Assembly (NCBI GenBank): GCA_023129325.1
Contig: JAGMCI010000017.1
Span: forward strand, 13,252-77,251
From: a candidate division WOR-3 bacterium
GTDB taxonomy: Bacteria; Hydrothermota; UBA3073; JACQXS01; JAGMCI01
Direction of reading: 5' to 3'
DNA length: 64,000 nucleotides
Positions within the stretch are counted from its first letter, which is position 1. Every line of letters begins with the position of its first letter. The position numbers and the translations under genes were made by a program. Positions 8,767 through 55,196 of the stretch are shown here, piece by piece. The notes beneath the pieces are model-generated. The model searched no databases, was not told the DNA's origin, and saw only the letters and a program-made list of their open reading frames with translations.

Positions 8767-11550
8767 TTACTTTAAAATTATCAACTTTTTTGTAGCCTTA
8801 AAATTATCAGTCTCTATTTTTGCAAAATAAATTCCTGGAGCAGTTCCTGATGCATCCCAGTTTACAGTATACTGACCAGCTTCTTTTCTTGCATTAACTA
8901 ATGTTTTTACCAATCTGCCAGTCACATCGTAAATTTTTAAAGAGACCTTACTAATGGTTGGTAGTTGATACCTAATAGCTGTTGTAAAACTAAACGGATT
9001 TGGATAGTTTTGAAACAAGAAATAAGTTTCTGGAGTTTTCTGTTCTTCCCCTCCAGTTTTACCAGAAGCTGTATCAACAAAAGTTCTAATCATCAAATCA
9101 TAATTTAATCCAAGTTCTGTGAATTTACCCCATTCTCCATTTACGCAATACCAGGCTCTATCGTCAATTGGTAAGGTGGCATCTATCCCTATTGAAGGAG
9201 TTGATGGTAATTCTTGCAGTCCAACATAGAAATCTCCAGAACTAAGCACAATATTTTCAGGCTCTACCTCAAGTTCATTCCAGCCTTCTATTACAGATAC
9301 AGTGTCTGAATAAAGTTCATTCAGGGGTGCTTTCTCACTGGAATTCCAGACTTTGGCAATGAAATCGCCTTCTCCTGTATTAACATAATATTCAAGGACA
9401 ATAAGCTTTGTAGGATATTTATCAGGGGTAAATCTCGCTGCCATATAATGAGAAGTTCCAACATTATAACCAGCATAAGGATTACCGGCATCGTATTTGA
9501 TTTCATAAACTGTAGGTGGATTTGGCATAACTTCAATAGGATAACAATAGCGACTTTCGCCTTTTTGATAAACAGCACTAACCGCATAATAATAGCGTTG
9601 CCGATTTACTACATTAGTATCGAGATAAAAGGTATCGGTAAGTCCTTTTACAAAAGGAGCTCCAAATGATGTTCCCTTCTCTCGTTTGTATAAATTATAA
9701 CTTAATGGAGTAGGTATAGTTGTATCTATTTCCTCAATTTCAGCCCTAATCATCATATTCATAGTAGTAAAAATTGCCCATCCATTATCCCAGCAATAGC
9801 TCCTATACACAGCTGAGCCATCATCCAGCGCTGGACCCCATTGACCACTTCCCATATTATCTATTCCAATATAAAAGTCTCCTGAATCTATTTCAATTCC
9901 ATAAGAAGATAAATCTATTTCATCACATTCCGTATTAGAGGCACGGCTTGGCATTAATTTTTCAATAGTTAGAAGTTTATGCCAGGGAGCTCCAGCACTA
10001 TCATCCCAGATTACAAGGTCGTAAGTTTCATTAAATGTTTCACTTACAGAGATAAAATTAATTATTGCTCTTGAAAGTTTAGCTGGATGGTCTAATGTGA
10101 ACCTGACAGCATAAGGTTGAAGAGTATTATCTACATAATACAGGGTGTCGCTAGTTTTATCTTTATCATAAAAAAGAATCTTAAAAGTTGGGCTCCAGGT
10201 TAATTTAGCTTGATTATCTCCAGTTTCTGCGTGAAGGTTAGATGGAGGATGAAGTTCACGCTCAGTGAGAATTACAAAATCATCCATAAACATACCATCT
10301 CCTAATGGCTCTCCATACGATACGACGATGATTCTAAATTGGATTTTTCTCCCAGCATATTTTGTTATATCAAGTTTTATATCAGGGTACATACTAAAAG
10401 AATACCATATATCATCTTGAAGGATAAAAACATAAGGAGTCGGATTTTCCCAGGGACCTCCATCTATTGAAATTTCTGGATAAAAATAATCAGCATACTG
10501 GTCCGGGACATGGTGTAAGTGTCCTTTCATCGAGAAATCCCATGTTACTTTTGGTTCATCCGGGACTATAATTATAGGTGATATAATAGCATCTTTTAAA
10601 AATGCCTTATAAGTAGTATCAGTGATACAGCATCGTGCACAATGTGTTGGTGAAGGAGCATCTGTTGCTTCTTCCAGATGCCATATATCACTACCAGTAG
10701 CTGATATAGAGGCAGTGGTAAACTCAAGTGTATCGTCCCCTTCGGCATTGCTTGTAAATACATGAGCTACATCAATATTATCTATTTGCCAGCCAATTAA
10801 ATCAGGATTGTATCCTCCTTGTTGGTCATAAGTACAATATGCTGGGTCTGAAGCAAATGCCCACCTGATTTTTACAGTATCTCCAGCATAAGAACTTAAA
10901 TTGACAGTAACATTTTCCCATCCGTCAGAACTTCCACCCCAACCAGGTATTCCTGGTCCTTCACCATGTTCGTATCCAAAACTATAGAAACTCCTACAAT
11001 TGTAGGCGGGACTTACATATGGAGTGTCTAAAACTGTCCAGGTAGCTCCTCCATCAGTCGAGATTCTCACATTACAGCCATCCCAACTATCATAAGGAGG
11101 CTCGGCACCAGCTGGGTCTTCCATTTTCCTATTCTGAACAAATGTAAGTGTGCAAGAGGTGGAAGGTAAAACAATTTCACGGGTATCTAAAACTTGATAC
11201 CAGTGGTTTAAATAACCACGAATAGTATCACCAAGTTCTTCTATATAAATATAATCTCCCATCCACCATGATTTTCCAGTCCCTTCATAGGCTTGAAATG
11301 TATCTGGGTGCCATACAGGAGGATAAGGCACATTTAAGTCCTTATGAGCCCATCTCATTCCTGACTCAAAATTTTCAAGATAAAAAGTATCCAGTCTTGT
11401 AATGTAAAAATCTTTACTTTTAGAAACCTCGTGAATTGTTTTTTCCAGAGATTGCTGAGAGATAGTCTTTATTCCAGAGGGGGGAGGATGTTTCTTTACT
11501 TGCTTAATATTATAAGAACTCGTTGCTAAAATTATAAATAACCATAACAT
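8767..11550 (-). CDS. large secreted protein with FN3-like segment and a T9SS C-terminal sorting domain; catalytic function unknown
   Basis: 927-aa ORF with SD AAAGGAGGT before the ATG. N-terminal hydrophobic MLWLFIILATSS. Contains PPSNLHAETGDNQAKLTWSP. C-terminus FQNYPNPFSF...KIYDVTGRLVKTLVN...GIYFAKI. Confidence 0.7.
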   Translation of the reverse strand: MLWLFIILATSSYNIKQVKKHPPPSGIKTISQQSLEKTIHEVSKSKDFYITRLDTFYLENFESGMRWAHKDLNVPYPPVWHPDTFQAYEGTGKSWWMGDYIYIEELGDTIRGYLNHWYQVLDTREIVLPSTSCTLTFVQNRKMEDPAGAEPPYDSWDGCNVRISTDGGATWTVLDTPYVSPAYNCRSFYSFGYEHGEGPGIPGWGGSSDGWENVTVNLSSYAGDTVKIRWAFASDPAYCTYDQQGGYNPDLIGWQIDNIDVAHVFTSNAEGDDTLEFTTASISATGSDIWHLEEATDAPSPTHCARCCITDTTYKAFLKDAIISPIIIVPDEPKVTWDFSMKGHLHHVPDQYADYFYPEISIDGGPWENPTPYVFILQDDIWYSFSMYPDIKLDITKYAGRKIQFRIIVVSYGEPLGDGMFMDDFVILTERELHPPSNLHAETGDNQAKLTWSPTFKILFYDKDKTSDTLYYVDNTLQPYAVRFTLDHPAKLSRAIINFISVSETFNETYDLVIWDDSAGAPWHKLLTIEKLMPSRASNTECDEIDLSSYGIEIDSGDFYIGIDNMGSGQWGPALDDGSAVYRSYCWDNGWAIFTTMNMMIRAEIEEIDTTIPTPLSYNLYKREKGTSFGAPFVKGLTDTFYLDTNVVNRQRYYYAVSAVYQKGESRYCYPIEVMPNPPTVYEIKYDAGNPYAGYNVGTSHYMAARFTPDKYPTKLIVLEYYVNTGEGDFIAKVWNSSEKAPLNELYSDTVSVIEGWNELEVEPENIVLSSGDFYVGLQELPSTPSIGIDATLPIDDRAWYCVNGEWGKFTELGLNYDLMIRTFVDTASGKTGGEEQKTPETYFLFQNYPNPFSFTTAIRYQLPTISKVSLKIYDVTGRLVKTLVNARKEAGQYTVNWDASGTAPGIYFAKIETDNFKATKKLIILK

Positions 11551-37863: not shown

Positions 37864-37996
37864 ATCAAAAATTAAAATGCAAAAATCAAAATTATTGTAG
37901 GCACGATTTCAAATCGCACAGGCAATTTATGATTAAGATTAAAAAAGTTTTGCTTTTTAATATGTGATTTTGATATTTGATTTTTGATATTTAATA
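37864..37996. repeat. inverted ATCAAAA / TTTTGAT heptamer arrays flanking the TGTAGGCAC hairpin
   Basis: Left array at 37864-37891 and right array at 37948-37996. Confidence 0.75.
37896..37924. repeat. TGTAGGCAC-family hairpin (short)
   Basis: TGTAGGCACGATTTCAAATCGCACAGGCA, flanked by inverted ATCAAAA / TTTTGAT arrays. Confidence 0.8.
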
Positions 37997-49367: not shown

Positions 49368-49420
49368 TGTAGGCACGATTTCCTTCGGGCCGAGTCTCAG
49401 GACGAGGTCAAATCGTGCAG
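49368..49420. repeat. TGTAGGCAC-family hairpin with 28-nt cargo
   Basis: TGTAG-GCACGATTT-(28 nt)-AAATCGTGC, with perfect 9-bp arms. Confidence 0.85.
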
Positions 49421-54170: not shown

Positions 54171-55103
54171 ATGATTAAAATTATTTTTTCTAAAAGATGT
54201 CTTGAATATGAATCTCCGGGACATCCTGAATCACCAAAGAGGGTTAAGATAATATATGACTTCTTGAAATCAAAAAGATATAAATTTATTGAGCCTGAAG
54301 AGTGTAATGAGAAAGACATTTTATTCGTTCATAGTCAGGAGTTATTAAATAAAGTAAAGCAAGGTAATTTCTTTGACCCTGATACCCCATCACTTCCTAA
54401 AATTTATGAATATGCAAAGCTTTCAGTTGAGGATGCAATAAAAGCAATGCAAGTCTCCCTTGAGGGAGACATAGGCTTTTCTATTATGAGGCCACCTGGA
54501 CATCATGCAAATCGGGATTCGCTTGGCGGGTTTTGTTACTTTAATAATATTGCAATTGCAATTGAGCACTTTGTAGGCACAAATTCAATTTGTGCTAAGT
54601 TTGTAGGCGAACCCTTTTCCGCAAAAGGCGGATGTGCCTCTGGCACAAGGGTTCGGAGGGCTGCAATTCTTGATATAGATTGCCATCACGGGAATGGGAC
54701 ACAGGATATATTTTTAGGAAGAAAGGATGTTTTATATGTCTCACTTCACAGGTTTGCTGCCTTTTATCCAGGGACAGGTGGAAAGTCTATTAAAAATGCA
54801 ATAAATTATCCTCTTAAATTTGGGATAGGTGAAAGTGAATATCTTGCAACTCTTGAAAATGCACTTAAAGGAATCAAGAAATTCAATCCCTCAATAATTG
54901 GAGTATCAGTCGGTTTTGATACTTACAAGTTTGACCCTATTGGGGGACTCGGACTTGAAATAAGTTCTTATAGGAAGATTGGGACACTTATCTCAGAACT
55001 AAATATCCCAACTTTTTATGTCCTTGAAGGCGGCTACAGTGACGACCTTCCCAAATGCGTTCTTGAATTTTTGCTTGGAATAAATAAACACAAAATCCTA
55101 TGA
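54171..55103 (+). CDS. histone deacetylase / acetoin-utilisation (arginase-deacetylase fold) family deacetylase
   Basis: RPPGHHA, GFCYFNNIAIA, DIDCHHGNGTQDIF and LEGGY. Confidence 0.8.
   Translation: MIKIIFSKRCLEYESPGHPESPKRVKIIYDFLKSKRYKFIEPEECNEKDILFVHSQELLNKVKQGNFFDPDTPSLPKIYEYAKLSVEDAIKAMQVSLEGDIGFSIMRPPGHHANRDSLGGFCYFNNIAIAIEHFVGTNSICAKFVGEPFSAKGGCASGTRVRRAAILDIDCHHGNGTQDIFLGRKDVLYVSLHRFAAFYPGTGGKSIKNAINYPLKFGIGESEYLATLENALKGIKKFNPSIIGVSVGFDTYKFDPIGGLGLEISSYRKIGTLISELNIPTFYVLEGGYSDDLPKCVLEFLLGINKHKIL
54572..54658. repeat. two tandem TGTAGGC-family hairpins in frame in the deacetylase gene
   Basis: TGTAG-GCACAAATT-c-AATTTGTGC, then TTTGTAGGC-GAACCCTT-(nested hairpins)-AAGGGTTC. It encodes VGTNSICAKFVGEPFSAKGGCASGTRVR. 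Confidence 0.8.
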
Positions 55104-55140: not shown

Positions 55141-55156
55141 TAAAAATCTGTGTAAT

Positions 55157-55196
55157 CCGTCTCCGCCTGAGGCGGATGACGGAGTGGCTATTTTTT
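55157..55196 (+). terminator. possible terminator after the deacetylase gene: nested hairpin plus T-run
   Basis: CCGTC-TCCGCCTGAGGCGGA-TGACGG, then 8 nt, then TTTTTT (55191-96). Confidence 0.35.
55162..55176. repeat. 15-nt palindrome TCCGCCTNAGGCGGA nested in a CCGTC/GACGG stem
   Basis: TCCGCCTGAGGCGGA. Confidence 0.9.

Follow-up and report, generated by a model that had tools for sequence, protein, structure and literature searches.

How does an enzyme come to carry an extra loop that is encoded by repetitive hairpin DNA, and does this loop matter to the enzyme? The question is raised by a gene at positions 54171..55103 (plus strand) of the window, the 64,000-nt stretch of DNA analyzed here, which is part of a metagenome-assembled genome of 2.02 Mb (57 contigs, 36% GC, 89% completeness). 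The gene was recognized in the list of open reading frames and by its match to Pfam PF00850 (210 bits, E = 6e-62). It is intact and encodes a class II HDAC-like deacetylase/deacylase (AcuC/APAH/HDAH family) of 310 aa, the translation of which includes ...IAIAIEHFVGTNSICAKFVGEPFSAKGGCASGTRVRRAAILDIDCHHGNG...; ExbB- and ExbD-like genes are located directly upstream. The domain match, the catalytic His pair, the Asp-His-Asp ligands, the catalytic Tyr and the arginase-like alpha/beta fold place the protein in the histone deacetylase superfamily. All 35 columns that are invariant among 119 homologues are retained, including the His pair H110/H111, the metal ligands D167/D169/H171, D249 and the catalytic Tyr Y288. 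As argued below, we consider the extra loop to be selfish DNA, a cluster of REPs (repetitive extragenic palindromes) that was inserted in frame and has survived as a neutral or nearly neutral passenger, and we assign a probability of about 0.88 to this reading.

The loop is an insertion relative to all orthologues examined

Orthologues of the deacetylase were found by six-frame search in 21 of 40 related genomes. Every good match splits at query residues ~133 and ~162, and the two pieces of the subject are only about three codons apart. Protein and codon alignments with the orthologues place the net inserted DNA at 54573..54650 (plus strand), 78 nt or 26 codons read as VGTNSICAKFVGEPFSAKGGCASGTR, with boundaries that are uncertain by about 5 nt and with the flanking sequences ...GAGCACTTT before and ...CGGAGGGCT after the insert. 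In the translated ORF, the stretch between ...FCYFNNIAIAIEHF and RRAAILDIDCHHGNG... reads VGTNSICAKFVGEPFSAKGGCASGTRV; the closest orthologue (same family, other genus, 72-77% identity) reads ...IAIAINHAGMRAAILDID... across the loop. The hairpin structures described below span 83 nt as compared to a net gain of 78 nt in the codon-level alignment. Thus, some 5 nt at one of the edges are shared with, or have taken the place of, ancestral bases, which leaves the junction approximate. The GC content amounts to 49% in the insert versus 36% in the rest of the gene.

The distance between the FNN and DIDCHHGNG motifs is 44 residues in the window protein and 18-22 in 15 aligned orthologues. A reading of the DNA made beforehand without database searches (the sequence-only reading) had estimated an insertion of about 29 aa and a distance of ~41 residues against ~20. 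The excess is real: near relatives have 18 residues where the window protein has 44, the most frequent value in the family is 21, and relative to the closest orthologues the net gain amounts to 26 aa (78 nt). In a search of 5.8 billion proteins that yielded 120 homologues, this distance was 18 in 16, 21 in 83 and 25-33 in seven of them; a distance of 44 was seen in the window's own protein alone, all others having 18-33. Comparable loops in unrelated taxa had been named in advance as an observation that would speak against an insertion, and a few unrelated homologues do have 25-33 residues here, which indicates that this loop tolerates changes in length. However, all of them fall short of 44, and the value in the nearest relatives is 18. 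Homologous genes at 80 loci from many bacterial and archaeal phyla have 274-296 codons.

The 78-nt insert is absent from every orthologue examined, including the orthologous deacetylase genes of REP-rich relatives, so that the event is specific to this lineage. An insert-free allele of the gene was not found, the next-closest protein among 15 billion being only 67% identical.

The inserted DNA is a composite of three repeat families

Within the inserted region, TTTGTAGGC occurs twice, at 54570 and 54600, with a spacing of 30 nt. Perfect 9-bp arms GCACAAATT/AATTTGTGC are present at 54577-54585 and 54587-54595, with a single C as the loop. Further perfect 9-bp arms, CGAACCCTT/AAGGGTTCG, are found at 54608-54616 and 54647-54655 and form an outer stem that encloses two more perfect hairpins, TCCGC...GCGGA and TGTGCC...GGCACA. 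For the region of 101 nt, the predicted single-stranded DNA fold reaches -26.5 kcal/mol as compared to -13.1 ± 2.5 kcal/mol in shuffles (z = -5.4; 0 of 200 shuffles as stable) and comprises a simple hairpin as well as a three-way structure from which two inner hairpins branch. The sequence-only reading had thus described the bases at 54570-54659 correctly, two tandem hairpin elements in frame, the first with perfect arms and the second with 9-bp arms and nested hairpins, both of which appear in the predicted fold.

Based on its arms and the single-stranded DNA fold, the first element, at 54573..54595 (plus strand), is a unit of the family termed REP-A here; it consists of GTAG + GCACAAATT-C-AATTTGTGC and is read as VGTNSICA. 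The second element, at 54603..54655 (plus strand) according to its arms, is a unit of the REP-B family, GTAG + (G)CGAACCCTT ... AAGGGTTCG, the loop of which is expanded by a nested element. The latter is a 29-nt hairpin doublet, CCGCAAAAGGCGG-AT-GTGCCTCTGGCAC(A), located at 54619..54647 (plus strand) in the REP-B loop as judged from its family copies and the fold. GTAG tags are present at 54573-54576 and 54603-54606, each with the stem after it as in all family copies; the hairpin doublet has no GTAG tag. Since three dispersed families are found here, one within another, the insert is a composite of three repeat families. Both units had been assigned to one TGTAGGC family at first. This holds for the first unit, the GTAG-tagged REP-A, but not for the second, which belongs to a sister GTAG family and contains a third, nested element. 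The REP-B copy in the deacetylase gene has GTAGGC where its family has GTAGCC. The inverted REPIN arrangement is the presumed mobile form of such repeats; the REP-A and REP-B units of the deacetylase gene are arranged in direct tandem and lie inside a 310-codon ORF instead of being extragenic.

The composite is free of stops in a single sense frame, frame 0, in which the gene is translated, and in a single antisense frame. In a scan of the deacetylase gene for terminators and promoters, no terminator-like site was found at the REP units, and the sole terminator-like site on the plus strand within the gene is located at 54513-54535, upstream of the insert. Neither strand of the insert region gave an Rfam match up to E = 1. 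An intein, a self-splicing intron and translational bypass were considered and rejected, as the segment is in frame, stop-free, too short (26 aa is far below intein size) and without a match to an RNA family. Being in frame and stop-free, the insert does not need to be removed.

Just 3' of the deacetylase stop codon, at 55156-55183 of the window, another nested hairpin, TCCGTCTCCGCCTGAGGCGGATGACGGA, was observed. Its core is a member of the (T)CCGCCTAAGGCGG(A) family, which is very abundant (more than 45 genomic copies) and in places forms short tandem arrays (e.g. C13:38914-39424).

Copies of the repeats in this and related genomes

REP-A is a 23-nt family with the pattern GTAG+GCAC(G/A)A(T/A)TT-N-AA(T/A)T(C/T)GTGC. 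The genome contains 31 copies with no more than one mismatch to this degenerate pattern, and 49 fuzzy matches to the 23-nt unit were found as compared to none in a shuffled genome. Taken by itself, the 9-mer TTTGTAGGC shows no enrichment in the window; enrichment is limited to the full unit of GTAG and hairpin. The REP-A unit of the deacetylase gene is identical to copies elsewhere in the genome, e.g. at C3:64124, C8:32841, C37:59590, C54:53104 and at C36:23511, where it flanks a gene for a RAYT transposase. Its stem of 9 bp with a 1-nt loop, or equivalently 8 bp with a 3-nt loop, is a short stem-loop as in published REPs, for which stems of 5-13 bp and loops of 2-20 nt are listed (Table 1, PMC3733652). 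Some copies form inverted pairs, e.g. at C36:22936-22984 and C9:117471-117518, and in some others GC-rich hairpins are nested in the loop. The two intergenic copies that had been noted in the window are both real according to the genome matches: GTAGGCACGATTTCAAATCGCAC at 37897..37919 (plus strand), and GTAGGCACGATTTCC...GGTCAAATCGTGC at 49369..49418 (plus strand), with a GC-rich hairpin nested in its loop.

REP-B is a GTAG family as well (GTAGCCGAACCCTTTAGGGTTCG, 17 loci in the genome). Its simple copies have an 8-bp stem and a 2-nt loop; in the deacetylase gene, the loop measures 30 nt owing to the nested element. For the hairpin doublet, 15 copies within five substitutions of the consensus CCGCCAAAGGCGGATGTGCCTCTGGCACA were detected versus none in the shuffled genome, each of them preceded by a T-run. 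The copy in the deacetylase gene, CCGCAAAAGGCGGATGTGCCTCTGGCACA, has one mismatch to the consensus, and at C10:1141 the loop of a REP-A unit contains a further nested copy. In non-coding DNA, direct tandems of REP-B and then REP-A are found at G000:C8:32841-32889 and G000:C50:4293-4344, the order being the reverse of that in the deacetylase gene. Different GTAG REP families seem to accumulate side by side.

When 41 related genomes were searched, REP-A was found with the same sequence in 16, all of the same class and with up to 109 copies per genome; it is absent from the nearest relative, G001. RAYTs are common among the related genomes that carry REP-A.

RAYT genes flanked by the repeats

Matches to Y1_Tnp were found in five regions of the genome. 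The best RAYT is a 166-aa ORF on C36 (L021:1444-1944) with 143.9 bits on the NCBIfam model NF047646 (REP-associated tyrosine transposase), which has a cut-off of 80 bits. This protein matches the solved E. coli TnpA-REP (PDB 4ER8) at 3e-14 and contains the motifs HFH (HUH motif) and YIHNNP. An inverted REP-A pair is located 5 nt upstream of its start, and two further REP-A units follow within 150 nt downstream. With REP-A units on both sides, it is the cognate RAYT of this family and shows the textbook RAYT-REP arrangement (PMC2817692, PMC3733652). A RAYT-like frame at C56:33579-33890 has a REP-B unit just downstream and a related GTAG hairpin upstream; with 76.4 bits on NF047646 it is below the cut-off of 80, and the match contains a TGA. 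The remaining RAYT frames are flanked by yet other palindromes.

Two more RAYT loci showed other arrangements. In a RAYT-like frame on the minus strand (L025, G000:C37:21292-21747), two matching pieces are separated by GTAG-tagged GC-rich hairpins (GTAGGGGCAACC..., ...GGGCAGGGGC...CCCTAC), which suggests that other REPs have interrupted this RAYT gene. A RAYT with 113.5 bits on NF047646 has an identical pair of adjacent hairpins, TGCAAAATCGGTGATTTTGCA + TGCAACAACATCGTTGTTGCA, on both sides (at G000:C22:8397-8438 and 9000-9041), tagged with GGAG/CTCC and not with GTAG. Copies of this 'GGAGTGCAAC...' element adjoin several REP-A copies (C4:6385, C10:24717 and C22:12062).

The insert is predicted to lie opposite the active site

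An AlphaFold2 model of the deacetylase, built on the homologue alignment, has a mean pLDDT of 91.8 and a pTM of 0.91, with values below 50 only at residues 140-157. Its closest match among solved structures is the lysine deacylase 5ZMP (TM 0.83), and the values for HDAH and APAH are 0.82-0.85. The protein thus shares the fold (TM 0.82-0.85) as well as the catalytic and metal-binding residues with class II HDAC-like deacylases such as 5ZMP, P. aeruginosa HDAH (5G0X/5LI3) and APAH (3Q9B). In contrast, these solved relatives have no aligned counterpart to residues 133-161, where HMMER alignments break or gap and none aligns through. The comparison with solved HDAC-like relatives, which the sequence-only reading had proposed as a check, thus shows that these skip the insert.

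In the model, a helix (125-135) is followed by the insert, by a strand (163-167) and then by D167/D169/H171. In an alpha/beta fold, the catalytic residues are located at the C-terminal strand ends and the helix-to-strand connections at the opposite edge. On the basis of this topology and the order of the secondary structure elements, the insert, which has two cysteines, is predicted to be a floppy, unstructured surface loop away from the active-site rim. Its position between the substrate-loop and metal-site motifs, as noted at first, applies to the linear sequence only, since in the model the insert leads into the N-terminal end of a strand, and the ligands are borne by the opposite, C-terminal end of this strand. 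Of the two features that had been expected from a model, a surface loop is indeed what the prediction suggests, but proximity to the active-site rim is not, as the topology would put the insert on the opposite side.

REPs in other genes and in a second deacetylase

About 11 REP-A loci of the genome lie inside long ORFs with recognizable functions, as judged by heuristic gene calls (stop-to-stop ORFs). In the gene for DNA polymerase I (C37:46650-49280, minus strand), the unit is read as VGTISNRA and is an insertion relative to the orthologues. It lies in the region G000:C37:48283-48440, in the linker between the 5'-nuclease and the 3'-5' exonuclease/polymerase parts. The same linker contains a second insert, a long GC-rich palindrome (TTTACCTGCCTCGCC...GGCGAGCAGGCGGGTAAA) just upstream of the REP-A unit; the two inserts jointly add ~32-44 aa and are absent from two orthologues. 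The REP peptides of an FtsA-like gene (VGTPETSSGPKRA) and of a DUF62-type gene (VGTISNPALIHKCGAGRA) are insertions relative to the orthologues as well. Searches with the DUF62-type gene and with a glycosyltransferase (GT4) gene gave unbroken matches, and the DUF62 insertion emerged on alignment with the orthologues. In the GT4 gene (C37:5824-7032), the REP is read as CRHEFNSC and a clean insertion was ruled out, as the alignment shows only two additional residues relative to the orthologues.

The REP peptide VGT-I/N-S-x-x-A recurs in unrelated proteins. Four of the six frames of the unit are stop-free, and the V-G-T frame (GTA-GGC-ACN) is used by eight of the 11 intragenic loci (C6:39314, C37:48283, C36:5394, C13:47851, C49:3941, C50:1172, C14:27527 and window position 54573). 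This preference could reflect an orientation or target bias of insertion, or the tolerance of proteins for the peptide.

A deacetylase homologue from an unrelated metagenome (P0009; L121:130-972, Logan SRR32194795 contig), which is 58% identical, likewise contains a GTAG REP of its own in this helix-to-strand loop. This REP, GTAG-GCACGAA-GAGAG-TTCGTGC (GTAGGCACGAA-GAGAG-TTCGTGC), uses the other open frame, with the translation CRHEESSC, and lies 4 nt farther from the conserved helix than the insert of the window gene. As closer relatives are without any insert, it looks like an independent hit. In both genes, TTT directly precedes the REP. With REPs of the same family in two lineages, at different nucleotide positions and in different frames, the loop might be a recurrent landing site of GTAG REPs in this deacetylase family, but we regard this as a tentative and rather unlikely generalization. 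If the loop were targeted by choice of the RAYT (a T-run, transiently single-stranded DNA) and not only tolerated by the protein, intragenic REPs would record the integration rule of the enzyme.

Origin and fate of the insert

The extra loop had been ascribed to dispersed hairpin repeats read in frame, and this view is upheld by the family copies and by the absence of the loop from all orthologues examined. We propose that REP-A (GTAG+GCAC(G/A)A(T/A)TT), REP-B (GTAG+CGAACCC) and the tagless doublet in the REP-B loop were inserted into the coding sequence, the units presumably being mobilized by RAYTs as single-stranded DNA hairpins. Because one element is nested inside another, there was probably more than one insertion event. 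Insertions that were out of frame or contained stops would have been removed by selection, and the present allele would have survived because its insert neither breaks the frame nor disturbs the fold. As the catalytic residues and the predicted fold are kept and the insert appears to lie opposite the active site, we infer that the peptide is a neutral or nearly neutral passenger and not a functional module, an argument that relies on the predicted model and against which a possible effect of the two cysteines near a metalloenzyme core has to be weighed. No sign that the insert has a function was found.

Alternatively, the loop may have been co-opted, so that a flexible, Cys-containing segment of 26 residues, born from repeats, would by now be of use to the enzyme, for example in its regulation, in contacts within an oligomer or in the binding of a partner. 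The intact gene with its still perfect hairpin arms is compatible with such a role, as are the REP in the same loop of the homologue from another metagenome and the variation in loop length across the family (18 to 33 residues). However, the segment is limited to one lineage and predicted to be disordered, and its DNA is identical to non-coding copies elsewhere, which indicates that the repeat, rather than any role in the protein, dictates its sequence. The same REP peptide is also found in unrelated proteins, and published intragenic REPs show no functional pattern (PMC3733652). Overall, co-option appears improbable.

The enzyme could also be damaged, the gene being a young pseudogene or a crippled allele in which stops have not yet accumulated. 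Perfect arms and identity to the master copies do suggest a recent event with little time for decay, and at 26 residues the loop is the longest seen at this position. Yet all 310 codons are open, every invariant catalytic residue is present, and the insert is located in a helix-to-strand connection of variable length in a model that retains the fold at high confidence. Furthermore, the composite is translated in its sole open sense frame, which would be expected after the purging of disruptive insertions. We thus consider a damaged enzyme very improbable. We give practically no weight to an assembly or binning artefact in which 78 nt were stitched in at short repeats without being present in the organism: the genome is a 57-contig MAG and the insert is made of repeats, but these are only 23-53 nt long, the insert length is a multiple of three, both flanks are collinear with the orthologous gene, and gene and flanks recur without any difference in another NCBI assembly, GCA_030643605.1, as well as in a contig that a different assembler produced (Logan, run SRR13892596).

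Relation to known palindromic elements

The preferred reading, an in-frame cluster of REP palindromes carried as a passenger, has precedents. GTAG- and CGTC-tagged REP superfamilies were described by Di Nocera, De Gregorio and Rocco in 2013 (PMC3733652). Units contained entirely within ORFs, of which more than half occur in groups and encode 20-30 aa, were accepted there as members of the REP families and argued to be probably neutral (PMC3733652). GTAG-tagged REPs and REPINs are mobilized by RAYTs (Nunvar et al. 2010, PMC2817692; Bertels & Rainey 2011, PMC3116915). As in these systems, the palindromes of the GTAG repeats described here are tagged on one side, their copies are dispersed in tens over the genome and form inverted pairs at other loci, and a RAYT gene is flanked by the same REPs. 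They differ from published GTAG REPs in their host, an uncultured low-GC bacterium that is probably WOR-3-like as judged by the name of one homologue, in the direct tandem of two GTAG families with a third, tagless doublet nested in a REP loop, and in the location of the insert within a catalytic domain and not in a linker or at a terminus.

By description, the deacetylase insert is also similar to the palindromic elements of Rickettsia (RPEs), the classical parallel, being an in-frame insertion in a protein gene with intact catalytic residues and predicted fold. RPEs are palindromic repeats that occur in frame in many ordinary genes and add surface peptides without inactivation. RPE-1 has a length of ~100-150 nt and is not known to have a transposase. 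The elements RPE-1 to RPE-10 are attributed to Ogata et al. (2000 and 2002); RPEs are also mentioned in PMC3733652. Unlike RPEs, the units described here are 23-53 nt long, GTAG-tagged and paired with RAYT genes, and the host is not Rickettsia.

With intragenic REPs and RPEs published, this type of event is already known and no new mechanism is opened by our analysis. Particular to the deacetylase gene are the nested composite of three families, its position in a catalytic domain and the second, independent REP hit in the same loop elsewhere. It thus provides a well-anatomized case of REPs that entered a catalytic domain without destroying it, in a lineage whose REP-RAYT systems are barely described, with three repeat families nesting into one another within one gene. 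For the HDAC fold, the insert serves as a natural map of insertion tolerance. For the annotation of metagenome-assembled genomes, it is a caution that lineage-specific loops in their proteins can be repeat DNA and not adaptations.
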